Origin: Actinomycetes bacterium
GTDB lineage: Bacteria; Actinomycetota; Acidimicrobiia; Acidimicrobiales; Bog-793
Length of the DNA: 55,212 bases
Assembly (NCBI GenBank): GCA_021803215.1
Contig: JAJZLV010000074.1
Span: 1 to 55,212, forward strand
Direction: 5' to 3'
Part shown: piece after piece, positions 17,916-50,003 of the stretch
Layout: each line of letters starts with the position of its first letter
How positions within the stretch are numbered: position 1 is the first letter of the stretch
The notes under the pieces: model-generated
What the model was told of the DNA's origin: nothing
Database searches by the model: none
Seen by the model: the letters and a program-made list of their open reading frames with translations, nothing else
Translations under genes and position numbers: made by a program

Positions 17916-19640
17916 ATGCGGAATGGGTTCCCGTCAAGTGGAAAAGCCGGTACCATCCCGCCGGGTTCAGGAGGACGAGTGGCCAGGGATCAACACGACT
18001 TTCTGATCGTCGGCGGCGGGTCGGCAGGCAGCGCCCTCGCGAACCGCCTCTCGGCCGATCCGGGCAACTCGGTGCTGGTGCTCGAGGCGGGCCGTCCCGA
18101 CTACCCGTTCGACGTCTTCATCCACATGCCGGCGGCGCTCACCATCCCGATCGGCAACCGGTTCTATGACTGGAGGTACGAGTCCGAGCCCGAGCCCCAC
18201 ATGAACGGGCGGCGCATCTACCACGCCCGGGGGAAGGTGCTCGGCGGCTCGAGCTCGATCAACGGGATGATCTTCCAGCGGGGCAACCCCCTCGACTACG
18301 AGCGCTGGGGGCGAGAGCCGGGCCTCGAGAACTGGGACTACGCCCACTGCCTGCCCTACTTCAAGAAGATGGAGACCTGCCGGGCGGGGGCCGACGAGTT
18401 CCGCGGGGGCGACGGCCCGATCATCCTCGAGCGGGGGCCGGCCACCAACCCGTTGTTCAAGGCGTTCTTCGAGGCTGTGCAGCAGGCCGGGTACAGCCTC
18501 ACCGACGACGTGAACGGCTACCGCCAGGAGGGCTTCGCCCCCTTTGATCGCACCATCTCGCGCGGGCGGCGTTGGAGCGCCGCCAGGGCGTACCTCCACC
18601 CGGCGATGAAGCGCCCGAACCTCGAGGTGAGAACGCGGGCCATGGTGGGCCGCGTCATCTTCGAGAACAAAAGGGCCGTGGGCGTCGAGTACCGCCAGGC
18701 AAGGGGTCCGGCGAAGACCGCCCGGGCCCGCCAGGTGATCCTGTGCGGAGGCTCGATCAACACGCCCCAGCTCCTCGAGCTCTCGGGGGTGGGCAACGCC
18801 GCGGAGCTCTCCGCCCTCGGGATCGACGTCGTGGCGGACCTGCCCGGCGTCGGCGAGAACCTGCAGGACCATCTCGAGGTCTACATCCAGTACGCCTGCA
18901 AGCAGCCGGTCTCCCTGGCGCCGGCCCTCAAGTGGCGCAACCGCCCGCTCATCGGGCTCGACTGGCTCTTTTTCCGCCGCGGGCCGGGCGCCACCAACCA
19001 CTTCGAGGGAGGGGGCTTCGCCCGGAGCAACGAGGCCGAGCTCTATCCGAACCTCATGTTCCACTTCCTGCCCATCGCCATCCGCTACGACGGCTCGGCC
19101 CCGGCCGCCGGGCACGGCTACCAGGTGCACATCGGCCCGATGTACTCAGATTCGCGGGGCTCGGTGAAGATCCGCTCCCGCGACCCGCGGGTCCACCCGG
19201 CCATCCGGTTCAACTACCTCTCGACCGGCCAGGACCGCCGGGAGTGGCAAGAGGCCATCGAGGTCGCCCGCAAGATCCTCAATCAGCCGGCCTTCGAGCC
19301 CTACAACGGCGGCGAGCTCTCGCCGGGCCCGAGCGTCGAGAGCGGCCAGGAGATCCTCGAGTGGGTGCGCCGGGACGGCGAGACCGCCCTCCACCCCTCC
19401 TGCACCGCCAAGCTCGGGACCGACGAGATGTCGGTCGTCGATCCCTCGTCGATGCGGGTGCACGGGCTCGACGGCTTGACGGTCGTCGACGCCTCCGTCA
19501 TGCCCTATGTCACCAACGGCAACATCTACGCCCCCGTCATGATGGTGGCCGAGAAGGCCGCCGACCTCATCCTCGGCAACACCCCCCTTGCGCCCGAGCC
19601 CGTCGCCTTCTTTCGCCGTGACACGAACGAGGTGCCGTGA
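17916..19640 (+). CDS. betA: choline dehydrogenase (GMC oxidoreductase)
   Basis: Similarity to BetA is strong along the whole length as I recall it: [68 protein letters not shown] and HPSCTAKLG. The likely true start is GTG 17979, just after AGGAGGA (17969-17975). Confidence 0.9.
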
Positions 19641-21091
19641 GGCAGTTCAGCTGCTACATAGAGGGTGCCTTCGTGGCCGGCCCGGTCGCGCTGCCGGCCG
19701 AGAGCCCCTCGAGCGGCGAGCGCTTCGGCACCATCATGGCGGGCGACGCCGGGACGGCCGGCGCCGCCGTCGAGGCGGCCCGGCGGGCGGCCCCCTCCTG
19801 GGCCGCCCTCTCGCCCTTCGACCGGGCCGAGCACCTCTTTGAGGTGGCCTCGGTGCTGCGCGAGGAGCGCCAGGCGCTGGCGGAGATCCTCACCCTCGAC
19901 CAGGGAAAGCCGCTCCTGGCTGAGGCCTACGACGAGGTCGACGAGCTGGTGGTCTACTTCGAGATGGCGGCGGCGGACGCCAGGCGGCTCGAGGGCAGCC
20001 TGCCCGCCTCGGTCTCGGCCGGCCGCCGGGTGCTCGTCCGCCGGCTGCCCCTCGGCGTGGTCGGAGTCGTCTCGCCCTGGAACTGGCCGTACACCATGGG
20101 GGCCGAGCTCATCGCCCCGGCTCTGGCGGCCGGGAACACCGTGGTCTGGGTGCCGGCCCCCTCGACGAGCGCCTGCACCGCCGAGCTGGTGCGGCTCATC
20201 GCGGAGAAGGCCCGGCTCCCCAAGGGAGTGCTCAACTTCGTGGCCGGTGAGGGCCCGGTGGTCGGAGCGGCCGTCGTCGCCCACCGGTTCACCGACGGGG
20301 TCGGCTTCATCGGCTCGGTGGCGACGGGGAGGGCCGTGGCGAGCGGGGCGGCCGGGAAGACCCAGCTCCTGGAGCTGGGCGGGAACGGACCGATGGTCGT
20401 CCTCGCCGACGCTGACGTCGAGCTCGCCACCGAGGCGGCCCTCGAGGCGGCTTTCCTCTGCGCCGGGCAGAGCTGCACGGCCGGCGAGCGCTTCCTCGTG
20501 CAAAGAGAGATCCGGGCCGACTTCGTCGAGTCGGTCCTGGAGGCGGTCCGGGCCCGGGTGGTCCTCGGCGACCCCTTCGAGGCCACCACAACCATGGGAC
20601 CCCTCAACAACGAGAAGACGGCGGCCAAGTTCGACCAGCACGTCGCCGACGCCGTTCGAAGGGGGGCGAGCTGCCTGGTGGGCGGCCGGCGCCGTGAGGG
20701 TTTTCCCACCCGCCTGTACGCCGAGGCGACGGTGCTCGACGGCGTCAGCCCCGAGATGGAGATCGCCAGAGAGGAGACCTTCGGCCCGGTGGTCCCGGTG
20801 GTCGAGGTCTCTTCGGTCGAGGAGGCCCTCGAGCTCACGAACGCCTCGCCTTTTGGTCTCACGGCCGCCGTGTTCACCGAGGACCTCGAGACCGGCCTGG
20901 CCTTTGCGGAACGGACGAGAGCCGGCTGGGTGAACGTGAACGGATCCACCAACCTGTGGGAGTCCCACCTTCCCTTCGGCGGGCGGGCCGGCAGTGTGAG
21001 CGGGCGGGGCCGGGTCGGCGGGCGGGCCGCGCTCGAGACCTTCAGCGAGCCCCAGACGGTCCTGCTGCCGGCCCCACGACTTGCCCGCTAG
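19637..21091 (+). CDS. NAD(P)-dependent aldehyde dehydrogenase (context suggests betaine-aldehyde dehydrogenase)
   Basis: ALDH motifs are present: [15 protein letters not shown], catalytic Cys in [10 protein letters not shown], and EETFGPV. The GTG start overlaps the betA stop (GTGA). Confidence 0.88.
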
Positions 21092-21121
21092 CCGTGGGGC
21101 GCCCCCGAAGATTCCCCCTCC

Positions 21122-23668
21122 TTGAGCCCTAGTGAAAGAGCCAATGTGACAGTGAACAACAAGCGCGCCAGCTGCGTCGTCATCGGCGCAGGCATCGTCG
21201 GAAACAGCCTCGTGCACCACCTGGCCCGCCTCGGCATGCGTGACGTCGTCCTTTTGGACAAGGGGCCGATGCCGAACCCCGGCGGCTCCACGGGACACGC
21301 CTCGAACTTCATCTTCCCCGTCGACTACTCGAAGATGATGACCGAGCTGACGGCCGACTCGACCCGCCAGTACAAGGAGCTCGGCGTCTTCACCGAGTCG
21401 GGTGGCGTCGAGGTGGCCCGCACGCCGGCCCGCCTGGAGGAGTTCCGCCGGCGGGTGACGACGGCCAAGGCATGGGGGATCGAGGCCGAGATCATCGAGC
21501 CGGGCGAGGTGGCCCGCCTCGTGCCCTACCTCGACCCGTCGGTGATCCGCGCCGGCCTCTACTTCCCCGCGGTGGGGGTGGTCGACTCCCTTCGAGCCGG
21601 CACCCTCATGCGCGAGGCGGCTCAGGGATCGGGCGCCCTCGAGGTGCTGGCCAACACCGAGGTGCTCGGCATCGAGGTCGACCGGGCCACCCGGCGGGTG
21701 AGAGCTCTCCGGACCACGGCCGGCGAGATCGAGACCGAGCTGGTGGCGATCTGCTGTGGTGTCTGGAGCCCCCGCCTGGCCGAGATGGCAGGCGCCCACA
21801 TCCCTCTCACGCCGATCGTCCACCAGATGATCAGCGTCGGCCCGATCCCGCTGTTCTCCGAGACGGCGGGCGAGATCGCCTACCCGATCGTGCGCGACGT
21901 CGACACCAACATGTACGAGCGCCAGCACGGCGGCGACCTGGAGGTGGGCTCTTACGCCCACCGGCCGATCCTCGTGGCCCCGGGCGAGATCCCCTCCAAC
22001 GAGGAGGCGGCCCTCTCTCCGACCGAGCTGCCCTTTACCCAGGAGGACTTCGACCCCCAGCTCGCCGAGGCGCTCGAGCTCATGCCGGAGCTGCTCGGCG
22101 ACGAGAACGTCGGCATCCGCTACGCCATAAACGGTCTCATCTCTATGACGCCCGACGGGCATCCCGTGCTCGGCGAGACGCCCGAGGTGAGAGGGCTCTG
22201 GTCGGTCGCCGCCAGCTGGATCAAAGAGGGCCCGGGCATCGGCCGGGCCGTGGCCGAGTGGATGGTCTCGGGCCGCTCCGAGATCGACATCCACGAGTCA
22301 GACCCGGCCCGCTTCTACCCCTTCCAGCAGACCCGCCGCCATGTGCGGGCGAGGGCGAGCGAGGGCTTCAACAAGATGTACGGCATCGTCCACCCCTTCG
22401 AGCAGTGGTCGCTCGAGCGGGAGATAAGGCTCGCTCCCATGTACGCCGAGGAGAAGGAGCTCGGCGCCTTCTGCTACCAGACGGCCGGCTGGGAGCGGCC
22501 CCACTGGTACGAGTCGAATGCCCCGCTTATCGAGCGGTACGGCGACGCCGTCATGGACCGGCCGGCCGAGTGGGACGCCCGCTGGTGGTCGCCGATCATA
22601 AACGCCGAGCACCTGGCGATGCGGGAGTCCTGCGGGCTGGTCGACCTGAGCGCTTTCGTGGAGCTCGACGTCACCGGTCCGGGTGCTCTCGACGCCCTGC
22701 AGTCCATCGCCGTCGCCCAGCTCGACGTAGCCGACGGGCGGGTCGTCTACACGCCCTTCCTCGACCAGGAAGGGGGCTTCAAGGCCGACCTCACGATCAT
22801 GCGTCTCGGGCGGGACCACTTCCGGGTCGTGACGGGCGGAGCCCACGGGATGGCGGACAAGAAGTGGATCCTCGATCACCTGCCGGCCGGCGGCTCGGCC
22901 CAGCTGTGCGAGGCCACCTCGGCACTCACAACCCTCGGGCTGTGGGGCCCGCAGGCCCGGCGGGTGCTCGAGATGGTGACGGACGACGACCTCTCCAACG
23001 AAGGCTTCGCCTTCTCGACCTGCCGGGAGATCGAGGTGGCCGGCCTCGTGGCGCTCGCCTCGCGCATCTCCTATGTCGGGGATCTCGGCTGGGAGCTGTA
23101 CGTGCCGATCGAGCAGGGTGCCCGGCTCTGGCGGGCCCTCTACGAGGCCGGCGCCCCGCTCGGTCTCGTCCCGGTCGGGATCGGCGTCTACGGCACCACC
23201 GGCCGGCTCGAGAAGAGCTACCGGGCCTTCGGCAGCGAGCTCACGCCGGACTACGACATCACCGAGGCCGGCATGGCGAGGCCGCGGGTGAAGAGCCAGC
23301 CGTTCATCGGCAAGCAGGCCTACCTGCGCCAGCGCGAGAGCCAGCCGGCCGCCCTGCTTTGCACCCTCGCAGTCGACGAGCACGCCACCCCGGCGGGGGA
23401 GCGCCGCTACATGCTAGGGGGAGAGCCGATCCTCACCCGGGAGGGCGAGCGGATAACGGACTCGAAGAACCGGCCCTCTTACGTCACCTCGGCCGGGGCC
23501 GGACCCTCGGTCGGCCGCCACCTGCTGATGGCCTACCTGCCGCGCCAGCTGGCGGTCGAGGGTGAGCGACTTCTCGTCGGCTGCATGAACGAGACCTTTC
23601 CGGTCACGGTGGTGGTCGCCGGCTCTCGGCCCCTTTTCGACCCGGAGAACGAACGGGTGCGAGCCTGA
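21122..23668 (+). CDS. dimethylglycine/sarcosine dehydrogenase-oxidase family protein (N-terminal FAD oxidoreductase fused to GcvT-type folate-binding aminomethyltransferase domain)
   Basis: The dinucleotide fold reads CVVIGAGIVGNSL. GGSTGHASNF corresponds to the covalent-flavin His region of DMGO/DMGDH. The GcvT part includes LVDLSAF, SYVGDLGWELY and LEKSYRAFG. The protein is about 848 aa, like dimethylglycine oxidase. Confidence 0.85.
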   Translation: MSPSERANVTVNNKRASCVVIGAGIVGNSLVHHLARLGMRDVVLLDKGPMPNPGGSTGHASNFIFPVDYSKMMTELTADSTRQYKELGVFTESGGVEVARTPARLEEFRRRVTTAKAWGIEAEIIEPGEVARLVPYLDPSVIRAGLYFPAVGVVDSLRAGTLMREAAQGSGALEVLANTEVLGIEVDRATRRVRALRTTAGEIETELVAICCGVWSPRLAEMAGAHIPLTPIVHQMISVGPIPLFSETAGEIAYPIVRDVDTNMYERQHGGDLEVGSYAHRPILVAPGEIPSNEEAALSPTELPFTQEDFDPQLAEALELMPELLGDENVGIRYAINGLISMTPDGHPVLGETPEVRGLWSVAASWIKEGPGIGRAVAEWMVSGRSEIDIHESDPARFYPFQQTRRHVRARASEGFNKMYGIVHPFEQWSLEREIRLAPMYAEEKELGAFCYQTAGWERPHWYESNAPLIERYGDAVMDRPAEWDARWWSPIINAEHLAMRESCGLVDLSAFVELDVTGPGALDALQSIAVAQLDVADGRVVYTPFLDQEGGFKADLTIMRLGRDHFRVVTGGAHGMADKKWILDHLPAGGSAQLCEATSALTTLGLWGPQARRVLEMVTDDDLSNEGFAFSTCREIEVAGLVALASRISYVGDLGWELYVPIEQGARLWRALYEAGAPLGLVPVGIGVYGTTGRLEKSYRAFGSELTPDYDITEAGMARPRVKSQPFIGKQAYLRQRESQPAALLCTLAVDEHATPAGERRYMLGGEPILTREGERITDSKNRPSYVTSAGAGPSVGRHLLMAYLPRQLAVEGERLLVGCMNETFPVTVVVAGSRPLFDPENERVRA

Positions 23669-24423
23669 TGGACCTCCTCGTCTGCCTGAAGCGGGTGCCC
23701 ATGGTGGGCGGCCGCATCGGGCTGCTCCCCTCCGAGCGCCAGATCGACACCGCCATGCTCGGCTTCACCGTCAGCCCGCACGAGGAGTGCGCCGTCGAGG
23801 AGGCCGTCCGGATCGTCGAGTCGCAGGGAGGTCAGGTGACGGTGCTCACGCTCGGGCCGCCCGAGGCGGCCGAGCAGCTCCGCGACGCCGTCGCGGTCGG
23901 GGCCTCGCGCTGTCTGCTGCTCGAGGCGGGCGGGAAGGAGTGGGGTCCGATGGCGACCGCCCGGGCGATAGCGGCGGCTGCCGAGCAGGCGGGTCCTTTC
24001 GACCTCATCCTGTTCGGCAACGAGGCGGCCGACACCGCGGACTTCCAGGTCGGCGTCCGGGTGGCTCACCTGCTCGGCCGGCCGGTGGCGACCGGCATCA
24101 AGTCGCTCTCGGTCGAATCGGGAGCGGTCACCGCCCGCCGCGAGTACCGCGGGGTCGAGGAGAGCTTCGTGCTTCAACTGCCGGCCGTCGTGAGCGTGAA
24201 AGAGGGGATCAACCTGCCTCGTTACCCATCGCTGCCGGGCCGGATGCGGGCGAAGAAGGCCGTCATCGAGACGCTCTCGCCTGCTTACAGCGAGGAGGGC
24301 CTCTCGATGGAGCGGCTCGTGGTGCCGAAGGTGGAGCGCCGCCGGGCCGCGGTGCTCGGCGAGGGTCGGGAGGCGGTCGGCGAGCTGGTCGACCTGCTCG
24401 AGCAGCTGGGGATATTGGCATGA
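23668..24423 (+). CDS. etfB: electron transfer flavoprotein subunit beta
   Basis: The sequence MDLLVCLKRVP..VSPHEECAVEEAVRI..VTVLTLGP is a typical EtfB. The ATG overlaps the upstream stop (TGATG). Confidence 0.9.
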   Translation: MDLLVCLKRVPMVGGRIGLLPSERQIDTAMLGFTVSPHEECAVEEAVRIVESQGGQVTVLTLGPPEAAEQLRDAVAVGASRCLLLEAGGKEWGPMATARAIAAAAEQAGPFDLILFGNEAADTADFQVGVRVAHLLGRPVATGIKSLSVESGAVTARREYRGVEESFVLQLPAVVSVKEGINLPRYPSLPGRMRAKKAVIETLSPAYSEEGLSMERLVVPKVERRRAAVLGEGREAVGELVDLLEQLGILA

Positions 24424-25379
24424 GCTGTGCCATAGTCTTTTGCGAAGCGGGGCCCGAGGGGATGATCGAGGCCTCGCTCCGAACGGCCGGCCTCGCCCGC
24501 CGGTTGGCTGACGAGCTGGTGCTCTGCGGCCGCGAGCTGCCAGGCGTGGCCGCCGAGCAGGCGAGGCAGGCCGGAGCGCGAAGGCTCGTCTCGCTGGCTG
24601 TGCCCGGCTACGCCCCCCGCGGGATCGCCCGAGCGCTCTGGCAGCTGGCCGAACGGCTCGGGGCAAGCGCCGTCCTGGCGGCCGGCACCGACCACGGCAA
24701 CGAGATCCTCGCCCACCTCGGCGCCCTCTCGGACGAGGAGATGGTGGCGAACTGCCTAGCCGTCGAGAGGCGGGGCGAGGGCTATGTCGTAACCAGGCAG
24801 CGCTGGGGCGGGAGCCTTTTGGAAGAGGCCCACCTCGAGGCGCGCCGGGCGCTGCTGACCGTGGCCGCAGAGGCAGTCGCCCCCGCCTCCTCGCCTGAGC
24901 CAGAGCCCGTCGGCGAGGAGAGCTTCGAGCCCTCGCTCGACCCGGCGGACCTCTCGGTGACCGCCAGCGAGCAAAGAGAGCAGGCGGCCGGCGTCTCGCT
25001 CGCGAGCGCCCGGGTCGTCGTGAGCGGCGGGCGAGGCGTCGGCGGCCCGGAGGGCTTCGGAGTCATAGAGGAGATCGCCGAGATGCTGGGCGGCGCCGTC
25101 GGGGTCTCCCGGGTGGTCACGAGCCTTGGGTGGCGCCCGCACAGAGAGCAGGTGGGCCAGACGGGCACGAAGGTGACGCCAGAGCTCTACCTGGCCTGCG
25201 GCATAAGCGGCGCCATCCAGCACCTGGCGGGCTGCCAGAGCGCCAAGACGATGGTGGCGATCAACACCGATCCGGAGGCGCCGATAATGTCGCGGGCCGA
25301 CTACGCCGTCATCGGAGACCTCGCCGAGGTGCTGCCGGCTCTGCGCGACGCCCTCGCCGAGCGTCTCAGAAGGCAATGA
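24420..25379 (+). CDS. etfA: electron transfer flavoprotein subunit alpha
   Basis: The C-terminal FAD-binding signature is present: VVSGGRGVG..GQTGTKVTPELYLACGISGAIQHLAG..VAINTDPEAPI. The ATG at 24420 overlaps the etfB stop (ATGA). Confidence 0.9.
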   Translation: MSCAIVFCEAGPEGMIEASLRTAGLARRLADELVLCGRELPGVAAEQARQAGARRLVSLAVPGYAPRGIARALWQLAERLGASAVLAAGTDHGNEILAHLGALSDEEMVANCLAVERRGEGYVVTRQRWGGSLLEEAHLEARRALLTVAAEAVAPASSPEPEPVGEESFEPSLDPADLSVTASEQREQAAGVSLASARVVVSGGRGVGGPEGFGVIEEIAEMLGGAVGVSRVVTSLGWRPHREQVGQTGTKVTPELYLACGISGAIQHLAGCQSAKTMVAINTDPEAPIMSRADYAVIGDLAEVLPALRDALAERLRRQ

Positions 25380-25408
25380 GGCATTCGACCTAGTTACTCT
25401 TTTTCCTC

Positions 25409-26752
25409 ATGAGCACGGAGCTGGTAAGGAAGGAGTCGAACGAGAGCTCTTCGAGCCGCCCGCCCGAGGGTGCCGCGCCCGGGGTCGCCTCGCAGCTCGG
25501 GCCGCTCTTCGCCTCATTGTTCCCCCAAGGCAGCCCGGTCGCCTTCTCCTTCTGGGACGGCAGCCGGCTCGGGCCGGGCGGCGGCCCGGGCGAGGTGGTG
25601 GTGCACCACAAGACCGCCCTCAGGCGCCTGCTGTGGGCGCCGGGCGAGCTCGGGCTGGCGCGGGCCTACGTGTCGGGCGAGATCGACCTCGAGGGCGACA
25701 TCTACGCCATCTTGGCGTCGCTGAACGAGGCGATGGGGCGGCGGCCGCCCCGCCCGACCAAAACGCTCGGCGCCCTCCTCAGGGTCCTTTTCCGCCTCGA
25801 TCTCCTCGGGCCGCCGCCTCCGCCGCCTGCTGTCGAGGTGAGGCTCTCGCTCCTCTCCTCCGGCTGGCTCCACTCCAAGGGGAGGGACTCCGAGGCGATC
25901 CGGCACCACTACGACGTCGGGAACGACTTCTACTCGCTCGTCCTCGGCCCGACCATGACCTACTCCTGTGCCCGATTCCTCGACGGCGCGACGAGCCTCG
26001 AGGCGGCCCAGGCGGCCAAGCACGAGCTCATCTGCCGCAAGCTCGGCCTCGATGCGAGGCCCGGCGCCCGCCTGCTCGACGTCGGCTGCGGCTGGGGCTC
26101 GATGGCGATCCACGCGGCCGCCAACCACGGAGCCAAGGTGGTCGGGGTGACGCTCAGCCCGGCCCAGGCCGAGCTGGCCCGGGAGCGGGTCGAGGCCGCC
26201 GGACTCTCGGACCGGGTCGAGATCCGCCTGCAGGACTACCGCGACCTCGGCGGGGAGAAGTTCGACGCCATCTCGTCGGTCGGCATGTTCGAGCACGTCG
26301 GGAGCGAGAGGATGCACGAGTACTTCGCCACCCTCTACGGGCTGCTGGACTACGAGGGACGCCTCTTGAACCACGCCATCTCGAAGGTGGGCGGCTCGAA
26401 GATGCGCGGGCGGCGCTTCATCAACCGTTACGTCTTCCCCGACGGCGAGCTGATGGACGTGGCCGAGGTCGTGCGGGCCATGGAGGACCATGGCTTCGAG
26501 GTGCGCGATCTCGAGTCGTTGCGGGAGCACTACGTGAGGACGCTCCGGTTCTGGGTGGCCAACCTGGAGGAGCACTTCGAGGAGGCCGCCGCCGTCTCGA
26601 GCAGGGAGAGGGCGCGAGTCTGGCGCCTCTACATGGCGGCCTCGGCCAACGGCTTCGCGGAGAACTCGATCGCGGTTCACCAGGTGCTCGGGGTGAAGAG
26701 CGCCCCGAACGGCTCGAGCGGCATGCCGCTCACGAGGCGGTCCTGGGGCTGA
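25409..26752 (+). CDS. cfa: cyclopropane-fatty-acyl-phospholipid synthase family SAM-dependent methyltransferase
   Basis: The protein contains HYDVGNDFYSLVLGPTMTYSCARF, the SAM motif LLDVGCGWGSMAIHAA, and FEHVG. Confidence 0.85.
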   Translation: MSTELVRKESNESSSSRPPEGAAPGVASQLGPLFASLFPQGSPVAFSFWDGSRLGPGGGPGEVVVHHKTALRRLLWAPGELGLARAYVSGEIDLEGDIYAILASLNEAMGRRPPRPTKTLGALLRVLFRLDLLGPPPPPPAVEVRLSLLSSGWLHSKGRDSEAIRHHYDVGNDFYSLVLGPTMTYSCARFLDGATSLEAAQAAKHELICRKLGLDARPGARLLDVGCGWGSMAIHAAANHGAKVVGVTLSPAQAELARERVEAAGLSDRVEIRLQDYRDLGGEKFDAISSVGMFEHVGSERMHEYFATLYGLLDYEGRLLNHAISKVGGSKMRGRRFINRYVFPDGELMDVAEVVRAMEDHGFEVRDLESLREHYVRTLRFWVANLEEHFEEAAAVSSRERARVWRLYMAASANGFAENSIAVHQVLGVKSAPNGSSGMPLTRRSWG

Positions 26753-26753
26753 G

Positions 26754-27614
26754 CTAGCTCGTGGCCGCCAGCGAGAAGCGCTCGAGGAGCGACCGGCGCC
26801 ACGCCTCGGTCTCTGCCAGCTGGTTGAAGGTGAAGACGTGGAAGCCGGCCACAGCCGCCTCCGGGGCGGTGAGGGCGCCCGCCAGCCGCTCGATGAAGCG
26901 CTCGGGGCTGTAGCCGCCAGGCGCCCCGAGACGGGCGAACCAGGCGATGTGGCGGGCGAAGAAGCGGGTCGACTCGGAGACACCGATCTTGGAGGCGATG
27001 GAGAGGAGCTTGGTCCGCTCGACGGGACCGGCCAGGCCGAGGTAGAGCGGGAGGTCGACTCCCCGGCGGCGCACCCGGTGGATCCAGCTCGAGAGCACCT
27101 TCGGGTCGAGGCAGAGGTTGCTCACGATGTAGTCGGCGAAGAGCCGCTTGTCCCACATCGCCTGGATTGTGAGGTCGTCGTCGATCCTCGGGTGGCTCTC
27201 CGGGTAGCCGGTGATGCCGACCCGGAAGGGGCGTCCCATCTCGGCCAGCCGGACGAGCACCGGCAGGGCGCCCTCGAAGGCGCCGGCGGGCGGGTCGGCG
27301 TCCCCGGCCGGCACGAAGACCTCCTCTATGCCTTTGGCGGCGAGGCGGGCGGCGATCTCCTCCAGGTGCCTGTTATCGGCGACGAGGCGGGCCGAGAGGT
27401 GCGGCACGGCCCGGTAGCCCTCGGCCGCCAGCTGCTCGGTCACCTGCAAGGTGGTGTCGAGGCCTTTGCTCGGAGAGGCGGTGACCGAGAGCGTCACGGA
27501 CTTCGGGACTGCAGCACAGGTCCTCTCCACGGCGGCGGCGGGCGGGAGCACCTCGTAACGGGGCCGGTCGAAAAGCCCGGCGGCCGCCACGGCCCGCAGC
27601 CCCCGGCCGCTCAT
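26754..27614 (-). CDS. metF: methylenetetrahydrofolate reductase
   Basis: The MTHFR-like pattern is present (SVTASPSKGLDTT..AVPHLSAR..GITGYPESHP..). It is the last gene of the corrinoid operon, and its ATG overlaps the upstream stop (ATGA). Confidence 0.8.
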   Translation of the reverse strand: MSGRGLRAVAAAGLFDRPRYEVLPPAAAVERTCAAVPKSVTLSVTASPSKGLDTTLQVTEQLAAEGYRAVPHLSARLVADNRHLEEIAARLAAKGIEEVFVPAGDADPPAGAFEGALPVLVRLAEMGRPFRVGITGYPESHPRIDDDLTIQAMWDKRLFADYIVSNLCLDPKVLSSWIHRVRRRGVDLPLYLGLAGPVERTKLLSIASKIGVSESTRFFARHIAWFARLGAPGGYSPERFIERLAGALTAPEAAVAGFHVFTFNQLAETEAWRRSLLERFSLAATS

Positions 27615-28228
27615 CTGGGCGCCTCGAGGAGGTTGAGAAGCTCGCTGGCCAACGGCTGCGAGCCGACCTCGAGCGTCTCCAGCTCGAGGCCGAGGCGCTC
27701 TGCGATGGCCCTCGCCTTCGCCGCCAGCTCGTCATCCGGGCTCTCGCGCAGCCAGACGACCCTCTTGTAGTGGGCGAAGTAGTCGGCCACGAGCTCGGGA
27801 TGGGCGTCGAGGCCGAGCCCGGCTACGACGGTCCGCTCGAAGCTGCGGACGAGGAAGTCGGTGAGCAGGTAGCTGCCCGCCTCCTGCTCCAAGAGCTCGG
27901 CGACGCGGGCAGGCCCGGCCAGAAGGTCGTAGCAGTGCAGTCCCGGCAGGCGCCGCAGTCCGAGCCTGGCGCAGAGGTCGTCGAGCACGCCGTAGGTGCC
28001 GCAGTCGGCGTAGGCGAGCACCACCTCCTTCCCCTCTGCCGACAGCCGTCTCGCCAGCTCTTCGACGGCCGGGGGGATCTCGGCCGGCCGGTCGTGCAAG
28101 AGGGCGGAGAGAACGTGCAGCTCGACCGGTCGCTCAAGCTGGCGGGCCGCGGCTCGAACGGCGCTCGAGAGGGCGCCGCAGGCGATCACGGCGAGGGTGC
28201 CCGCCTCGTCAGCCGGCTCCCCGCTCAC
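27611..28228 (-). CDS. DUF1638 domain protein (accessory gene typical of corrinoid methyltransferase clusters)
   Basis: The sequence LAVIACGALS..VVLAYADCGTYGVLDDLC..LPGLHCYDLL matches the DUF1638 pattern. The GTG start overlaps the upstream stop (GTGA). Confidence 0.7.
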   Translation of the reverse strand: MSGEPADEAGTLAVIACGALSSAVRAAARQLERPVELHVLSALLHDRPAEIPPAVEELARRLSAEGKEVVLAYADCGTYGVLDDLCARLGLRRLPGLHCYDLLAGPARVAELLEQEAGSYLLTDFLVRSFERTVVAGLGLDAHPELVADYFAHYKRVVWLRESPDDELAAKARAIAERLGLELETLEVGSQPLASELLNLLEAPR

Positions 28229-30084
28229 GGTGCCGGGAAGGGAAGCTGGTCGATGAAGCGGTCGTTGAAGTCGGGCCGGTCGGAGAGCTCGACGTACTCG
28301 ATCTCCTCGGTGAGCGCCATGGCGCCGGCTCGTTCCCGGACGCTCAACAGGGCCATCTTCGCCCCTTCGCCGGCGACGTTCCCGGCGCTTATCACCCGCA
28401 GGGCCGCCATCTTCGGCACGAGGCCGAGGCGGATGGCGCTGGCCGGCGAGAGGTAGCTCCCGAACGAGCCCGCCAGGAGGACCTGCTGGAGGTCGGCGGC
28501 CGAGAGGCCGGCGTCTTCCATCAGGAGCGTCCAGCCGGTCGCGATGGCGGCCTTGGCGAACTGCAGCTCGCGGACGTCGCGCTGGGAGAGGTAGACCGAG
28601 CGCTCGCCTTCGTGGAGGAGGAAGACCCGCTCCTCTCCCACCTGCTGGAAGCGCTCTCGGAGGCCAGGGGCGAGCTCGGCAGCCCGCTCGCTCGTCACGA
28701 AGCGGCCGCTCGAGTCGATGAGCCCGAGCCGTACGAGCTCGGCGACGACGTCGACCAGGCCCGAGCCGCAGAGGCCGACCGGCTCCACGTCTCCGATCAC
28801 CTGCAGCTCGAGGCCCTCCGGCGCCAGCTTCACGACCTCGATGGCGCCTTCGGCCGCCCGCATCCCGCAGCGGATCTGGGCGCCTTCGAAGGCCGGCCCG
28901 GCGGGGGCGGCGGTGGCCAGCAGCCCCTCGGAGCTTCCGAGCACTATCTCGCAGTTGGTGCCGATGTCTATGAAGAGCCGGGTTCGGCTGTCACGGTCCA
29001 TTCCCGAGGCGAGCAGGCCGGAGATGATGTCGCCCCCGACGTAGGCTCCGAGGGCCGGGAAGGCGACGAGCCGGGCCCGCCGGTTGACCGGCAGGCTCAT
29101 CTCGCTCGCGAGGAGCTCGGGGTACTGGCGCGTGGCGAGTATGAAAGGCGCCATGCCGAGCGGCTCGGGGTCGATCCTAAGGGCGATGTGGGTCATGGTG
29201 GCGTTCCCCGCCAGCGCCACCTCGTAGACCTCGTCCGGGGCGACGCCTGCTCTCTCGCAGATGGTGGTGATCAGCTCGGCGAGGGTCTCGTGCGCCAGGC
29301 TGGCCAGCTTCTCGAGGGCGGCGGGCTCCAGCATGATCGTCGAGATCCGGGTGATGACGTCGCCCCCGAAGGGCTGCTGGCGGTTGAGCGTCGAGGCCAC
29401 CTCGACCGGGGTGCCGGTCCTGAGGTCCAACAGGCTGGCGACACAAGTCGTCGTCCCGAGGTCGATCGCCACCCCGAAGAGGCGCTCTGTCGTGTCGCCC
29501 GGCTCGAGAGCGATGAGGATGTCGTCTGAGACGACTGCAGTCAACTTGTAGTCGTTTGCCCGCAGCAGCGGCCCGATCGTCCTGAGGACCTCGAGGTCGA
29601 CTCGAAGCTCGAGATCGTCCATGGCGGCGAGGACCCGCTCGAGGTCGCTTCTTTGGTCCTTCAGGCTCGGCTCTTCGAGCTCCAGGTAGCGCTTTTGCAC
29701 CGCCGGGCGCAGGATGACCTTGCGCCCGACGCCGACGGTGGCCGCCTTCGGGCGGGTGAGGAGGGGCGGAACCTCGACCTCGAGATCGCTCACGACCTGC
29801 ACCCGGCAGGCGAGCCGCCAGCCCTGGCGGATCTCCTCGGCATCGAAGGCGCGCAGGTCGAGCTGGCTCGGGGGGGCGTCACCGCTCTTGAGCTGCACCC
29901 GGCACTTCTTGCAGGTGCCGTGGCCGCCGCAGGTCGAGTCGATGGCGATGCCGTTCCAGCTGGCGGCGTCGAAGAGGGTCACCCCGGGCGGCACCCGCAC
30001 CTGGCGGTCGCTCGGGGTGAACCTGAGCTGGACCCTGCTTTGAGCCTGGGGCGGCCCGCCCTCGTCGAGCGCCGCGGTGCTCAC
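28225..30084 (-). CDS. corrinoid activation/regeneration protein, RACo-type (N-terminal plant-type [2Fe-2S] ferredoxin plus ASKHA ATPase domain)
   Basis: The N-terminus has CGGHGTCKKCRV, a 2Fe-2S Cys pattern. The central and C-terminal regions have IDLGTTT.. and IDIGTNCEIVLG.. phosphate motifs of ASKHA/DUF4445-type proteins. Confidence 0.8.
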   Translation of the reverse strand: MSTAALDEGGPPQAQSRVQLRFTPSDRQVRVPPGVTLFDAASWNGIAIDSTCGGHGTCKKCRVQLKSGDAPPSQLDLRAFDAEEIRQGWRLACRVQVVSDLEVEVPPLLTRPKAATVGVGRKVILRPAVQKRYLELEEPSLKDQRSDLERVLAAMDDLELRVDLEVLRTIGPLLRANDYKLTAVVSDDILIALEPGDTTERLFGVAIDLGTTTCVASLLDLRTGTPVEVASTLNRQQPFGGDVITRISTIMLEPAALEKLASLAHETLAELITTICERAGVAPDEVYEVALAGNATMTHIALRIDPEPLGMAPFILATRQYPELLASEMSLPVNRRARLVAFPALGAYVGGDIISGLLASGMDRDSRTRLFIDIGTNCEIVLGSSEGLLATAAPAGPAFEGAQIRCGMRAAEGAIEVVKLAPEGLELQVIGDVEPVGLCGSGLVDVVAELVRLGLIDSSGRFVTSERAAELAPGLRERFQQVGEERVFLLHEGERSVYLSQRDVRELQFAKAAIATGWTLLMEDAGLSAADLQQVLLAGSFGSYLSPASAIRLGLVPKMAALRVISAGNVAGEGAKMALLSVRERAGAMALTEEIEYVELSDRPDFNDRFIDQLPFPAP

Positions 30085-30944
30085 GAAGCCTTGCCGGCCT
30101 CTCTCGCCCGGTGGGCGGCGATCCAGTTGGCCCCCCAGGGGTCGTGGTCCAAGAGGAGGTCGGCCGCCTTGACGGCCCGCACCAGCTCGGGCGAGCGAGC
30201 GTCCATGATGGCGCTCGTGAGCCCGGCCTGCATCGCCATCGGCAAAAAGGCGCTCCCGATCGCGGCCCTCTCGGGCATGCCGAAAGAGACGTTCGAGGCG
30301 CCGAGCGTCATGTTGACGCCCAGGTCGCGGGCGATGAGCCCGATCGTCTCGAGAGTCCTCCTCACGAGGCTCGTGTCGGCGCCGACCGGCATGGCGAGCG
30401 GGTCGATGAGGATGTCCTCACGGGCTATGCCGTACTCGTCGGTCGCCACCTTTACGATCTTGCGGGCGAGCTCGAGGCGGCGCTCGGGTTCCTCGGGGAT
30501 CTCCTCCTCGTCGTTCGGGAGGCAGATGACGGCCGCCTGGTGGCGTTTCACGAGCGGCAGGATGGCCCCCAGCCGGTCGTCCTCGGCCGTCACCGAGTTG
30601 ACGAGGGCCTTGCCCTCGTAGGCTCCGAGCCCCGCCTCGAGGGCCTCGACGACCGAGGAGTCGATGCAGAGAGGGAGATCGGTGAGGCTCTGGACGAGCT
30701 TCACCGCCCTCACCATGAGCTCCACCTCGTCGGCCAGGGGGGCGCCCATGTTCACGTCGAGCACCATCGCCCCGCCGGCCACCTGCTGGGCGACGTCGAT
30801 CTCCACCCGGGAGAGGTCTCCGGCCCGCAGCTGCTCTTGGAAGAGCTTGCGCCCGGTCGGGTTGATGCGCTCGCCGATGACGCAAAAGGGCTGCGCCGGA
30901 CCGATGACGACCTGCCGGGAGGCCGAGCGGAGGACCGTCTCCAT
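30081..30944 (-). CDS. methyltetrahydrofolate:corrinoid methyltransferase (pterin-binding, MtgA/MeTr-like)
   Basis: The sequence VIGERINPTGRK..LDVNMG..CIDSS..LVNSV.. is the DHPS-like pterin-binding barrel pattern. Confidence 0.8.
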   Translation of the reverse strand: METVLRSASRQVVIGPAQPFCVIGERINPTGRKLFQEQLRAGDLSRVEIDVAQQVAGGAMVLDVNMGAPLADEVELMVRAVKLVQSLTDLPLCIDSSVVEALEAGLGAYEGKALVNSVTAEDDRLGAILPLVKRHQAAVICLPNDEEEIPEEPERRLELARKIVKVATDEYGIAREDILIDPLAMPVGADTSLVRRTLETIGLIARDLGVNMTLGASNVSFGMPERAAIGSAFLPMAMQAGLTSAIMDARSPELVRAVKAADLLLDHDPWGANWIAAHRAREAGKAS

Positions 30945-31615
30945 CAGACCTTGGACCCGGCGGCCGCCCGGCGCCGCGCGAGCAGCTCCTTGGCGCGCTT
31001 CACCGCCGCCGAGGCGTCGGCCGCATAGCCGTCGGCGCCGACGACGTCGGCGTACTCCTGGGTGACGGGGGCCCCACCGACCATCACGATGACGCTGTCG
31101 CGCAGCCCGGCCTTCTCGATGGCGTTCATGTTCGCCTTGAACATCGGCATGGTCGTCGTGAGAAAGGCCGAGAAACCGACGATGTCGGGCCGGTGCTCCT
31201 CGATCGCCTCCACGAAGCGCTCCGGGGCGACTTGGACCCCGAGGTCGATGACGTGGAAGCCGGCGCCCTCCAACATGATGTTGACGAGGTTCTTCCCGAT
31301 GTCATGGACGTCACCTTTCACCGTGCCCATGACGAAGGTCCCGACGGACTCGACTCCTGTCTCGGCGAGGAGCGGACGGAGGATCTCGAGGGCGCCCGAC
31401 ATCGCCTTGCCGGCGATGAGCATCTCGGGCACGAAGAAGTCGCCCCGCTCGAAGCGGGCGCCCACCTCCTCGAGAGAGGGGATGAGGGCCTCAAAGAGCA
31501 TCTCTTCGGGGCTGAGACCCATCGAGAGCCCGGCGTTCGTGAGCGCCAGCACCTCGGGCCCGTTCCCGACCAGGGTCGAGTCGTACATCTGCTGCAGCAG
31601 TTCCTCGCGGTTCAT
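30944..31615 (-). CDS. corrinoid (cobalamin-binding) protein, MtgC/MtbC-like
   Basis: There is an N-terminal B12-binding cap helix bundle and then the DxHxxG motif in GTVKGDVHDIGKNLV, followed by ..GFSAFLTTT..VMVGGAP. The start is trimmed to ATG 31615 (MNREELLQQ..). Confidence 0.88.
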   Translation of the reverse strand: MNREELLQQMYDSTLVGNGPEVLALTNAGLSMGLSPEEMLFEALIPSLEEVGARFERGDFFVPEMLIAGKAMSGALEILRPLLAETGVESVGTFVMGTVKGDVHDIGKNLVNIMLEGAGFHVIDLGVQVAPERFVEAIEEHRPDIVGFSAFLTTTMPMFKANMNAIEKAGLRDSVIVMVGGAPVTQEYADVVGADGYAADASAAVKRAKELLARRRAAAGSKV

Positions 31616-32409
31616 GCGGCACCTTCCTGTCGTGGGTGGTGGCCGAGGAGGGCAGAGAAGCCGGCCGCCTCGACCCGGCACAACTTGGCGGCCTCGGCCA
31701 CCCTCGGGGGTGTCAGCCGGCTGGCCGGCCCGGAGACCGAGATGGCGGCCACCGCCTCTCCGTGGCCGTTCAGCACCGGGGCCGCCACTGCTACGAGCCC
31801 AGCCTCGAGCTCGTCGACCGCCACGGCATAGCCCCGCCGGCGCACCTCGGCCAGCTCGTCGGCGAGCGCGGCCCGGCTGGTGGTCGTCCGGTCCGTCAGG
31901 TGGGCGAGCCGGCCGGGGGGGAGCGAGGCGGCGCCGAAGGCCAGGAGCACCTTGCCGAGGGCACTGGCGTGGAAGGGGACCGGCCGGCCGACCCAGTTGG
32001 TAGTCCCCAGCACGTAGCGGCTGTCGATTTGGTCGAGCTGCTCGACATGGCCCCTCCGGGCGACGCCGATGTTGATTGTCTCGCCGGTCGCCTCGCCGAG
32101 GCGGCGAAGGTGCGGCCGGGCCAGCTCTATGAGCTCGAACTCCCGGCCGCCCCGCCCGGCGTAACGGAGGAAGAGCTCACCCGGCTCGTAGCAGCTGTTC
32201 ATGTCGCGGCGGACCAGCCCGGCCCGCTCGAGGGCGAACAGGAGCCGCGAGGTGGTGCTCTTGGCGAGCCCAGTGGCGGTTGCGAGCTCGCTGAAGCTCT
32301 TCGGAGAATTGGCGTCGACGATCTCGGTCAGAAGGCGGGTGGCCCGGTCGACTGCCTGGGTCCCCGTCGGCGAGCCGGTCGTCGGCCGCTCGGTGGCGCT
32401 TGTGGACAT
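31612..32409 (-). CDS. IclR family transcriptional regulator
   Basis: From ATG 32409 the protein has the wHTH FSELATATGLAKSTTSRLLFALERAGLV and the IclR effector domain (..INIGVARRGHV..GLVAVAAPV..ISVSGP..). The TGA stop overlaps the corrinoid-protein ATG (ATGA). Confidence 0.88.
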   Translation of the reverse strand: MSTSATERPTTGSPTGTQAVDRATRLLTEIVDANSPKSFSELATATGLAKSTTSRLLFALERAGLVRRDMNSCYEPGELFLRYAGRGGREFELIELARPHLRRLGEATGETINIGVARRGHVEQLDQIDSRYVLGTTNWVGRPVPFHASALGKVLLAFGAASLPPGRLAHLTDRTTTSRAALADELAEVRRRGYAVAVDELEAGLVAVAAPVLNGHGEAVAAISVSGPASRLTPPRVAEAAKLCRVEAAGFSALLGHHPRQEGAA

Positions 32410-32470
32410 CGGTTCCAGCTTACGGAACTTTGTTCTACGATGCGAACCATGTTCGAGAACAGGATGCCGC
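32410..32470. promoter_or_regulatory. divergent control region with an array of GTTC/GAAC half-sites (candidate IclR operator)
   Basis: The sequence is cGGTTCCagcttacGGAACtttGTTCtacgatgCGAACcatGTTCGaGAAC. Palindromes are GTTCC-N7-GGAAC (32412-32428), GAAC-ttt-GTTC (32425-32435) and CGAAC-cat-GTTCG (32443-32455), the last centred on a candidate ATG of the MttB-family gene. Only 30 bp separate the two divergent start codons. Confidence 0.5.
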
Positions 32471-33888
32471 GCTACGAGATCCTCTCCGAAGATGCCATCG
32501 CCACCTTGGAGAGGGGCTGGAGGCGGATAGTGAGCGAGATCGGCGTTCAGTTCGCAAAGCCCGAGGCAGTCGAGCTGTTCGCCAAGGCCGGTCAGAGGAC
32601 CGACGGCGAGACGGTCTTCCTCGATCCCGAGTTCGTGATGGAAAAGGTGGCGCTCGCTCCCCGTCAGTTCGACATGCAGGCGCGCAACCCGGCGAACAAC
32701 GTCCACATCGGCGGGGACCAGATGGTCTTCTCGACCGTCTACGGGCCGCCCTTCGTGCGGCAGGGAGAGGTGAGGAGAGACGCCACCATGGCGGACTTCC
32801 GTCGCTTCGCCATGCTCGCACAGTCCCACCCAGAGCTCGACTCCGGCGGCGGGGTGATCTGCGAGCCGAACGACGCCCCGCTCGACTCGCGCCACCTTGA
32901 CATGATCTACGCCCTCCAGACCCTGACGGACAAGATCTACATGGGAAACGTCGTCTCGGGCGCCAACGCCCGCGACACGATCGAGATGAGCTCGATCCTC
33001 TTCGGGGGCCGGGAGGAGATCGAGAAGACGCCGGTCTGCATCTCTCTCATCAACTGCAACTCACCGCTTCGCTGGGACGACCGCATGCTCGACGCCCAGT
33101 TCGAGTACAACCGAGCCAACCAGCCGGTCATACTCACCCCGTTCCTTCTGATGGGAGCCATGTCGCCCGTCTCGATCCCGGCCGCCCTCGCCCAGCAGCT
33201 CGCCGAGGCCTTCGCCGGCATCGCCCTCGCCCAGCTGATCCGGCCCGGCTGCCCGGTGGTGTTCGGCTCGTTCCTCTCGAACATCGACATGCAGTCGGGC
33301 TCGCCCTGCTTCGGCACGCCGGAGTCGGCCCTCGGCCTTTTGTGCACCGGCCAGCTGGCCCGTCATTACGGCCTGCCCTTCCGGACGGGGGGCGGTCTCA
33401 CCTCGAGCCAGACGCCCGACGCCCAGGCCGGTTACGAGTCGCTCATGACCCTGCTCCCGACCTTCCTGGCGGGGACCAACTTCGTCATGCACGCCGCCGG
33501 CTGGCTCGAGGGAGGCCTCGTCAGCTGCTACGAGAAGTTCATGATCGACATCGAGCTCCTGCGCCAGCTGCAGGTCGAGTTCACGCCGCTCCAGATCGAC
33601 GAGGAGTCGCTGGCGTTCGGAGCTCACGAGGAGGTCGGCCACGGGGGTCACTTCCTCGGAGCCGCCCACACGATGGAGCGCTTCCGCACCTGCTTTTACC
33701 GTCCCATCCTCTCCTCCTCGGCCAACTTCGAGCGCTGGACGAGAGACGGGGCCAATGACGCGGCCGCTCGGGCGGGCATCCTCGTCGAGAACGCCCTCGA
33801 CTCCTACGAGCTCCCGCCCCTCGACGAGGCAGTCCGGGCCGAGCTGGAGCACTACGTCACCCGCCGCCGTAAGGAGCTGGGGGACTGA
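32440..33888 (+). CDS. trimethylamine methyltransferase (MttB) superfamily protein, non-pyrrolysine type; probable quaternary-amine (glycine betaine-type):corrinoid methyltransferase
   Basis: The protein is MttB-like across its length (MPRYEILSEDAIATLERGW.., LINCNSPLRWD, PVILTPFLLMGAMSP, FMIDIELL). The reading frame is uninterrupted, with no in-frame TAG. Alternative starts are 32449 and 32464. The ORF back to 31636 is a shadow extension. Confidence 0.85.
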   Translation: MRTMFENRMPRYEILSEDAIATLERGWRRIVSEIGVQFAKPEAVELFAKAGQRTDGETVFLDPEFVMEKVALAPRQFDMQARNPANNVHIGGDQMVFSTVYGPPFVRQGEVRRDATMADFRRFAMLAQSHPELDSGGGVICEPNDAPLDSRHLDMIYALQTLTDKIYMGNVVSGANARDTIEMSSILFGGREEIEKTPVCISLINCNSPLRWDDRMLDAQFEYNRANQPVILTPFLLMGAMSPVSIPAALAQQLAEAFAGIALAQLIRPGCPVVFGSFLSNIDMQSGSPCFGTPESALGLLCTGQLARHYGLPFRTGGGLTSSQTPDAQAGYESLMTLLPTFLAGTNFVMHAAGWLEGGLVSCYEKFMIDIELLRQLQVEFTPLQIDEESLAFGAHEEVGHGGHFLGAAHTMERFRTCFYRPILSSSANFERWTRDGANDAAARAGILVENALDSYELPPLDEAVRAELEHYVTRRRKELGD

Positions 33889-44742: not shown

Positions 44743-44885
44743 GGGCGACAGCCAGTGCCCTTGGCGCTGACGCAGGCAGAAGGGCGAAAGTGCCCGACCG
44801 GCCTGGCGCCCATGCCGTTTGGAGAACCTCACGAGTTCCAGCAGGTCGGCGACAGCGCCGGCCGGACACACATGGAGGATACAAA

Positions 44886-46565: not shown

Positions 46566-46585
46566 CCAGCTGACCAGATGATGAG

Positions 46586-46620
46586 AGCCGGTGCCGGTGG
46601 CGAGGCCGCCGGCACCGGCT
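46586..46620 (+). terminator. 15-bp GC-rich stem-loop between the SBP and beta-glucosidase genes (attenuator/mRNA-stabiliser or weak terminator; no U-tract)
   Basis: AGCCGGTGCCGGTGG-cgagg-CCGCCGGCACCGGCT pairs 15/15 with one G-U, followed by tgcccgg. Confidence 0.4.
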
Positions 46621-46689
46621 TGCCCGGCCGCTTCGAGCAGGCCAAGAAGAGACTTCTCACTCTCACACCGAAGGAGGGCAAGGCTCCAA

Positions 46690-48141: not shown

Positions 48142-48195
48142 CTTCCGCTCGCGTGGGACGCCAAGAGACGCCACGGCCCGGCCGAAGCGAGCGCC

Positions 48196-49584: not shown

Positions 49585-49971
49585 GCCACCGCCCGGCCGG
49601 CCAGGTCGTGCGGGGGCCCGGCCTACCGGGTCGACGACCGGTCGGGAACAGAGCCCTGGGCGCGCTACGAGCTGGCGCCGCCGCCGAGGCGAGCGGGCGG
49701 CACGCCTCCCGAGCGCCAGCGCCTCCACCTCCGCTCTCACCGGTGCCGGCCGAATTGCGAATTAGCAGTCCGCCTGGACAGCTCCGTTCCGGCCAGCCCT
49801 CCTCGGCCGGGTCCTCGCAGACCGGGCAGGCGGTGTGCTGCCAGGGCCACCCGGCCGGCGGTAGAGGGAGTGCGCCGCCTGCTTGTCGGGGCGGCGGCCC
49901 GCCAAGGGTGCCAGCCGGCGCCTCGGCAGCTCTCAATTCGGCTGGTTTTCCCCCGCTGAACACGTAATTCA

Positions 49972-49986
49972 GTCGTTGTCAACGAC
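49972..49986. promoter_or_regulatory. perfect 7-1-7 palindrome GTCGTTG-T-CAACGAC just upstream of a promoter
   Basis: Read directly from the sequence. It ends 18 nt before the -35 element listed below. Confidence 0.4.
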
Positions 49987-50003
49987 AATCTCAACGGAAT
50001 CCC

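Follow-up and report, generated by a model that had tools for sequence, protein, structure and literature searches.

The 55,212-nucleotide stretch of DNA analyzed here (hereafter the window) is one contig (C147) of a metagenome-assembled genome (MAG) of 2.64 Mb, which consists of 148 contigs and is 95.5% complete. Between positions 17916 and 33888, the window carries a gene island made up of a plus-strand block for oxidative steps, a minus-strand operon for corrinoid-dependent methyl transfer, and a divergently transcribed gene for an MttB-superfamily methyltransferase. We consider it likely that this island serves the catabolism of choline to sarcosine, with a B12-dependent first demethylation of glycine betaine, in an aerobic, uncultured, Acidimicrobiia-type actinobacterium. 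The G+C content of the window is approximately 70%; open reading frames were picked by their third-position G+C, and the gene calls were confirmed by Pfam and NCBIfam scans of the window proteins. All thirteen genes named in a preliminary description of this DNA were found at the places given there. The genome is closest to MAGs that carry the label Acidimicrobiaceae or Acidimicrobiales. It encodes subunit I of cytochrome oxidase (COX1, 517 bits), and on these genomic grounds the host is probably aerobic and O2-respiring.

The plus-strand block begins with betA (17916–19640), which encodes a choline dehydrogenase of the GMC oxidoreductase type (GMC_oxred_N and GMC_oxred_C) that passes the equivalog cut-off of TIGR01810 (856 versus 732 bits). 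A GTGA overlap joins betA to a gene for an NAD(P)-dependent aldehyde dehydrogenase (19637–21091; PF00171, 446 bits), orthologs of which lie inside the islands of four relatives (G004, G011, G021, and G022). From its gene context, this protein is a candidate betaine aldehyde dehydrogenase. The third gene (21122–23668) encodes an FAD-GcvT fusion of the dimethylglycine oxidase/dehydrogenase type (hereafter the DMGDH-like enzyme) with the domain order DAO-FAO_M-GCV_T-GCV_T_C. Its top PDB match, over the full length, is the dimethylglycine oxidase of Arthrobacter globiformis (1PJ5, 514 bits), and it has the same four-domain architecture as that enzyme and mitochondrial dimethylglycine dehydrogenase (DMGDH). 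Unlike the gene for the Arthrobacter oxidase, the island gene is translationally coupled, through a TGATG overlap, to etfB (23668–24423; PF01012, 114 bits), which encodes the beta subunit of an electron transfer flavoprotein (ETF) and adjoins the DMGDH-like gene in relatives too. The alpha subunit is encoded by etfA (24420–25379; PF00766 and PF01012), whose start was placed from an ATGA overlap. The coupling to etfBA suggests that the enzyme is a dehydrogenase rather than an oxidase, with ETF as its electron acceptor; its proposed substrate is dimethylglycine.

The minus-strand operon contains six genes, and the junctions, which read ATGA (between iclR and mtgC), TGATG, GTGA, GTGA, and ATGA, are overlaps of 1 or 4 nt throughout, exactly as first described. 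The first cistron encodes an IclR-family regulator (31612–32409; HTH_IclR and IclR_C). It is followed by the gene for an MtgC-type corrinoid protein (30944–31615; B12-binding_2 and B12-binding), in which the DxHxxG motif reported earlier reads DVHDIG at residues 102–107; the top NCBIfam match of this protein is MtgC_2, at 198 bits and thus under the 370-bit cut-off. The third protein is a pterin-binding methylcobalamin:tetrahydrofolate (THF) methyltransferase of the MtgD type (30081–30944; PF00809), which passes the cut-off of NF005719 (301 versus 259 bits). Its top PDB matches are MeTr/AcsE and MetH's folate domain, and no chain named MtgA was found among its PDB matches; this MeTr/MetH-type character fits the MtgD described for the aerobic system (see below). 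Next come a RACo-type reductive activator (28225–30084; Fer2, RACo_linker, Raco_middle, and RACo_C_ter), which combines a [2Fe-2S] ferredoxin domain with an ASKHA ATPase, and a DUF1638 protein (27611–28228; PF07796, 82 bits), a proposed accessory to corrinoid reactivation. The last gene encodes a divergent, MetF2-like methylenetetrahydrofolate reductase (MTHFR; 26754–27614). Its assignment as metF in the preliminary description has a low Pfam score behind it (PF02219, 36 bits); its top PDB match is 7xg9 (108.6 bits), canonical MTHFRs scoring below 27 bits. Entry 7XG9 is S6MTHFR, a CH3-THF-oxidizing (type 4) MTHFR of Sphingobium lignivorans SYK-6 that is paired with THF-dependent demethylases (PMC11868366). 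It is the nearest structural relative of the MetF-like protein, and both are encoded beside a CH3-THF-producing, THF-dependent demethylase.

The MttB-superfamily gene (mttB) lies on the plus strand and had been placed at the first in-frame ATG, at position 32440. Since the relatives' genes begin with ATGTTC, the start is probably at 32449 instead, and this start (MFENR...) gives the usual ortholog length of 479 residues and the gene coordinates 32449–33888. A gap of 39 nt then separates mttB from the start of iclR. This divergent control region (32410–32448), a probable IclR operator, contains the inverted repeats GTTCC-N7-GGAAC and GTTC-N8-GAAC, and several related loci have the inverted-repeat element as well, likewise adjoining the start of iclR. 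Most relatives have an approximately 100-nt leader with a GAGGTGG ribosome-binding site before mttB; the leader is absent from the window and from its closest relative (L019), in which the repeats GTTCC-N7-GGAAC and GTTCTAC...GAAC are kept. Judging from this arrangement, the mttB mRNA may be leaderless or nearly so, and IclR probably acts on the repeats in the gap to govern its own operon as well as the divergent mttB.

Conservation of the island in related genomes

We searched 40 relatives of the same order with the MttB, DMGDH-like, BetA, and RACo proteins. Orthologs of MttB, the DMGDH-like enzyme, and BetA co-occur in the same 13 genomes, namely ten of the window's own family and one in each of three other families, and the BetA orthologs are 69 to 88% identical to the window protein. 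A RACo ortholog was found in 11 of the 13, and not in G025 or in the fragmented genome G001. The other relatives gave no ortholog-level match to any of the four proteins, and only a 38%-identity RACo homolog was found, in G039. Wherever contigs are long enough (G004, G011, G016, G021, G022, and G030), the genes lie within 15 to 27 kb of each other, in differing orders and orientations. G030 belongs to another family and has a complete 2.0-Mb genome of 54% G+C with an extended version of the island (C1:272000–306000). Linkage that is kept despite a rearranged order points to selection for linkage and is not predicted by inherited synteny alone. The preliminary description had taken a lack of co-conservation in relatives as the mark of chance adjacency of the two blocks; given the co-occurrence in 13 of 40 genomes and the linkage over 15 to 27 kb, the adjacency is non-random.

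We then scanned 185,579 species genomes for MttB. The best 80 matches are 79 to 87% identical, and every one of them is from an uncultured member of the Actinomycetota, with soil, peat, and the like as sources. Neighborhoods were counted in the 58 loci that have full 10-kb flanks. The operon genes are kept in nearly all of them: iclR in 55, mtgC in 57, mtgD in 58, the RACo gene in 57, and the DUF1638 gene in 54, whereas metF, the last gene of the operon, is kept in 45 at the identity threshold and in about 50 without it. The divergent arrangement of iclR and mttB is found in 55 of the 58. A gene of the oxidative block lies within 10 kb of mttB in 35 loci. Five of the remaining loci were sampled, and in all five a DMGDH-like gene is present on the same contig, from just outside the locus to approximately 30 kb from mttB; four of these genes are 71 to 72% identical to the island gene, and the copy in G045 is 41% identical and contains five TGA stops.

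One further gene lies between the two blocks, a CMAS/cfa-type methyltransferase gene (25409–26752, plus strand), which ends 1 nt from the stop codon of the convergent metF. It occupies the same position in only one of the 58 related loci (L019) and looks like a lineage-specific insertion, in agreement with the earlier statement that it is unrelated to the island.

In two relatives, G022 and G030, the island also encodes an ABC transporter of the OpuA type together with its OpuAC binding protein. The G030 island also contains genes for FolD, a formate-THF ligase, two sulfatase-family proteins, and a 2OG-Fe(II) oxygenase, as well as a second DMGDH-like gene and a second MttB paralog (with the motif ARHWGG). 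Such a gene content is in keeping with the catabolism of choline and betaine and a THF-linked oxidation of one-carbon units.

Some features of the relatives' loci stand apart from this pattern. The G045 DMGDH-like gene with stops (C61:100228–102234) and the island mttB of G021, which is read in two overlapping frames (L018, 16128–17565), may reflect long-read frameshift errors or decay. An Amt-family (ammonium/methylammonium) gene lies between betA and metF in G016 and G021 (L012, 10163–11410, and L018, 9013–10287), and it is not evident what part it would play in the catabolism of choline. In loci with a distant oxidative block, a D-2-hydroxyacid dehydrogenase gene follows metF (L022, 2665–3591; L035, 2272–3417; L058, 2830–3807), often with a DUF2332 gene nearby. 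Finally, MttB orthologs of 80 to 84% identity occur in MAGs of 6.7 to 9.6 Mb labelled Streptosporangiaceae or Actinomycetes (L022–L098 and G041–G045), and these are as close as the orthologs within the window's own family of 2- to 4-Mb genomes. This similarity across groups may stem from a horizontal transfer of the island, or the MAG labels may be unreliable.

Proposed route and its genomic background

A corrinoid system of this composition has been described in an aerobe. The aerobic Ruegeria pomeroyi DSS-3 needs MtgC and MtgD to grow on betaine, and betaine, choline, and carnitine induce its MttB-family proteins, RamA, DUF1638, and MetF2 (Mausz et al. 2025, PMC12478193); the DUF1638 homolog was induced on N-osmolytes, the genes in other aerobes are often co-located with those for the later demethylation of dimethylglycine and sarcosine, and approximately 5% of ocean mtgC reads were assigned to Actinomycetota (PMC12478193). 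The view taken in the preliminary description, that MtgB-type systems were characterized in anaerobes, is thus outdated. The Ruegeria system has the same component set as the island (a non-pyrrolysine MtgB, MtgC, a PF00809 MtgD, an ATP-dependent activase, DUF1638, and an extra MTHFR), a likeness seen at the level of the component list. The host of the island is, like Ruegeria, probably aerobic, and the co-location with later demethylation genes is as in the other aerobes. The island is, however, in an Actinomycetota host of the Acidimicrobiia type from mine drainage, tailings, and soil; its genes form one IclR-led operon with a divergent mttB, whereas those of Ruegeria are scattered; the choline-oxidation genes are inside the island; and the activase is of the RACo type with an N-terminal [2Fe-2S] ferredoxin domain. 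The genome is accordingly a new host of a published system, and the pathway is not new.

In the route that we propose, BetA and the aldehyde dehydrogenase would oxidize choline via betaine aldehyde to glycine betaine. The MttB homolog, acting as MtgB, would demethylate glycine betaine once, with MtgC, the corrinoid protein in its Co(I) state, as the acceptor of the methyl group, and MtgD would pass this group on to THF. When the cobalt is accidentally oxidized, the RACo activase, probably aided by the DUF1638 protein, would restore the Co(I) state at the expense of ATP, a reactivation expected to matter especially in an O2-exposed cell. The divergent MTHFR would convert CH3-THF to CH2-THF. The resulting dimethylglycine would be demethylated to sarcosine by the DMGDH-like flavoenzyme, with the electrons passing to EtfBA. 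The choline–betaine–dimethylglycine order of steps had already been proposed in the preliminary description, and it draws support from the co-conservation, from what the islands of relatives contain, and from the absence of another betaine demethylase among the genes found in the genome (see below), with glycine betaine as the probable substrate of the methyl transfer.

No other betaine demethylase was found in the genome. Its only homocysteine-methyltransferase (S-methyl_trans) domain is the N-terminus of a classical MetH, so neither BHMT nor a stand-alone MtgE was found; the MetH gene is split over two contig ends (C95:1574–3652 and C113:18425–18913), which is a break of the assembly and not of the gene. 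Four Rieske proteins are encoded in the genome, none with an oxygenase catalytic domain, and thus no GbcA-type oxygenase was found either.

For the sarcosine step, a second DAO-GcvT paralog, encoded on another contig (C27), is a candidate. It is 38% identical to the island enzyme, its top PDB match is mitochondrial DMGDH (555 bits), and it is the nearest counterpart of the second DMGDH-like copy of G030. In the same locus (C27:9189–16333; L009, 5190–12334), a GntR/UTRA regulator, an APC-family permease, and a kinase with a domain of the choline/ethanolamine-kinase type are encoded beside it. The locus as a whole may take part in the island's pathway, and the permease may provide an uptake route.

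Several observations weigh against this reading of the island. Two of them concern the MttB homolog itself. The betaine-binding residue Phe356 of Desulfitobacterium hafniense MtgB aligns with Gly359, and in a phylogenetic tree the protein falls into a different group (the Trp group, see below) from the D. hafniense MtgB type with the motif YRHIYF, which belongs to the sister group. Others concern its partners. The aldehyde dehydrogenase scores below the cut-off of the betaine aldehyde dehydrogenase model (TIGR01804, 335 versus 669 bits), several other aldehyde dehydrogenase models scoring like TIGR01804, and counts as generic in NCBIfam. The signature of S6MTHFR is missing from the MetF-like protein, in which Leu48-Pro49, Arg78, and Pro268-Phe269 align with Ser-Pro, Leu, and Thr-Phe (that is, Leu48 is replaced by Ser, Arg78 by Leu, and Pro268 by Thr); as these type-4 residues are lost, we infer the direction of its catalysis from the context. 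An ETF-QO domain was not found in the genome, the actinobacterial alternative EtfD not having been searched for. As for uptake and cofactor supply, a family search and tblastn with the relatives' proteins found no BCCT or OpuAC transporter in the 95.5%-complete genome, and CbiC and a cobalamin riboswitch were not found in it either, although four TP_methylase genes are present; that corrin-ring synthesis was not found in this genome is a weak negative. Lastly, no RNA run is listed for the locus.

Substrate of the MttB homolog and competing explanations

The MttB homolog (PF06253, 622 bits) is encoded by the sole PF06253 gene of its genome. As had been read from the sequence earlier, its frame has no in-frame TAG; the sole stop is the terminal TGA. 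It scored 271 bits with the pyrrolysine MttB model TIGR02369, which has a cut-off of 525 bits, and this was the only NCBIfam model that it matched, no MtgB-type model being among the matches. Among solved structures, it matches 4YYC with 446 bits, D. hafniense MtgB (2QNE/9YCE) with 405 bits, and pyrrolysine MttB (7xcl) with 144 bits. These results indicate that the protein is a non-pyrrolysine MttB-superfamily methyltransferase and probably a glycine betaine:corrinoid methyltransferase (MtgB). The closest solved structure, 4YYC, is a structural genomics entry named "putative trimethylamine methyltransferase," which we take to be a Sinorhizobium meliloti protein; a literature search found no paper for it. 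It has the same YRHWGG signature as the MttB homolog, and a HAAGWLEGG segment is common to both.

Mutagenesis and a structure with bound betaine have shown that MtgB binds its substrate via Tyr97, Phe356, Arg312, and His348 (Picking et al. 2026, PMC13080624). We aligned the MttB homolog to 9YCE using HMMER (9YCE numbering is the native numbering minus 2). Tyr97, Arg312, and His348 are kept as Tyr101, Arg315, and His351, numbered in the 482-residue translation from 32440, and the only aromatic residue near the Phe356 position is Trp355, four residues after the His. With its full-length match, the three shared residues, and a Gly in place of Phe356, the protein resembles a D. hafniense MtgABC component in a system that likewise consists of an MttB-superfamily TIM barrel and a DxHxxG corrinoid protein, with THF as the next acceptor; the island differs from MtgABC in its probably aerobic host and in a THF methyltransferase of the MeTr/MetH type.

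An exhaustive profile search (E < 1e-30) gave 1483 representatives, and a FastTree phylogeny was built from 99 sequences: 96 full-length representatives, the window protein, and the two G030 copies. The tree has no named anchors, and its clades were told apart by the published motif only. Homologs encoded on proteobacterial plasmids (Shinella, Leisingera) were rejected as anchors, since they occur in other contexts and carry ARHWGG. The tree consists of two groups with 99% local support each, one with the Trp and the other with an aromatic residue at the Phe356 position. Among the 99 sequences, 39 have an aromatic residue at the Trp position only, 41 at the Phe356 position only, 19 at neither, and none at both. 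This mutual exclusivity fits a relocated cation-π residue, in a pattern that is confounded by phylogeny. YRHWGG is found in every island-linked ortholog, including the 46%-identical G030 copy, and ARHWGG in the paralogs of other contexts, which are G030's second copy and the genes on the Shinella and Leisingera plasmids. From these alignments, we tentatively propose that the MttB proteins of the Trp clade may form a glycine betaine:corrinoid methyltransferase lineage of their own, in which the Trp four residues after the pocket His would have replaced Phe356 as the second cation-π residue, YRHW would mark the betaine copies, and A/G/S-RHW would mark paralogs for other amines; we consider this proposal slightly more apt to fail than to hold. 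Three of the four betaine residues are kept, and the clade is separate from that of D. hafniense MtgB; in agreement with the preliminary description, glycine betaine is one of several candidate substrates.

It is unlikely, though the most serious of the competing explanations, that the corrinoid system is real and the MttB homolog uses a quaternary amine other than glycine betaine, for example proline betaine, carnitine, γ-butyrobetaine, phosphocholine, or choline, with a looser link to BetA and the DMGDH-like enzyme. The replaced Phe356 and the position in the clade opposite to D. hafniense MtgB fit such a substrate, and enzymes that act on other acidic betaines retain Arg312 and His348 too (PMC13080624). 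In addition, the nearest 50%-cluster representatives (61 to 62% identical) differ at the Tyr97 position, and overall similarity does not reveal substrate specificity in the MttB superfamily. Nevertheless, Tyr97 is kept only in the island-linked copies, and the protein is tightly co-conserved with BetA and the DMGDH-like gene across families. This is also the sole MttB gene in a genome in which no other betaine demethylase was found, yet BetA and a dimethylglycine-type enzyme need a betaine step between them, and OpuAC-type transporters are encoded in relatives' islands. Glycine betaine is thus the probable substrate.

A second explanation holds that the corrinoid and pterin-binding proteins are not catabolic and mainly make up a methionine synthase in split form, like that of Phaeobacter and Ruegeria. 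In the published aerobic system, MtgC and MtgD double as parts of methionine synthesis together with a stand-alone homocysteine module (MtgE), and MetH is usually missing. Both domains do match MetH modules. Against this explanation stand the classical MetH, which with its N-terminus supplies the genome's only homocysteine-binding domain; the lack of a stand-alone MtgE, in which the island genome differs from Ruegeria; and the place of the genes in an IclR-led operon with an activase, divergent from mttB, in 55 to 58 of the 58 loci. The presence of a classical MetH without MtgE makes even a dual role in methionine synthesis unlikely, and a mainly biosynthetic role is very improbable. That the oxidative and corrinoid blocks belong to unrelated pathways and are adjacent by chance is scarcely credible: the unrelated cfa between them and the 23 of 58 loci without an oxidative-block gene within 10 kb of mttB would favor it, but it is rejected by the ortholog co-occurrence across the 40 relatives, by the co-localization, which persists under several gene orders and extends to a second family, and by the DMGDH-like gene within approximately 30 kb on the same contig in five of five sampled separated loci, one of these genes being the 41%-identical, stop-broken copy.

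Occurrence, significance, and other genes of the window

Metagenomes of mine drainage, mine tailings, and sediment, which stem from eight studies, contain DNA near-identical to the locus. As a choline-to-sarcosine route, the island would add a large group of uncultured Actinomycetota from soil, peat, and mine drainage to the marine and rhizobial Proteobacteria in which aerobic B12-dependent betaine demethylation is known; MttB orthologs of 79 to 87% identity are present in more than 80 species-level genomes. It also points to a dependence of choline and betaine turnover in these habitats on the supply of cobalamin. A compact, regulator-led operon wired to choline oxidation would also be a convenient package for heterologous reconstitution. 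The YRHW versus ARHW pocket signature is a testable lead for substrate prediction in the MttB superfamily; if true, the rule of YRHW versus A/G/S-RHW would sort thousands of MttB homologs in aerobes.

The gene scan of the whole window agreed with the earlier remark that it contains neither a betaine transporter nor a sarcosine oxidase. The island is flanked by genes for a sedolisin-type peptidase and a 392-residue protein. A separate cluster at 44790–55212 encodes two ABC systems with family-5 solute-binding proteins, a GH1 glycosidase, and two DAO-family oxidoreductases, and is unrelated to the choline/betaine island. The two DAO genes (48196–49584 and from 53161) were considered as sarcosine oxidases and rejected, the closest proteins being putative aminophosphonate oxidoreductases.

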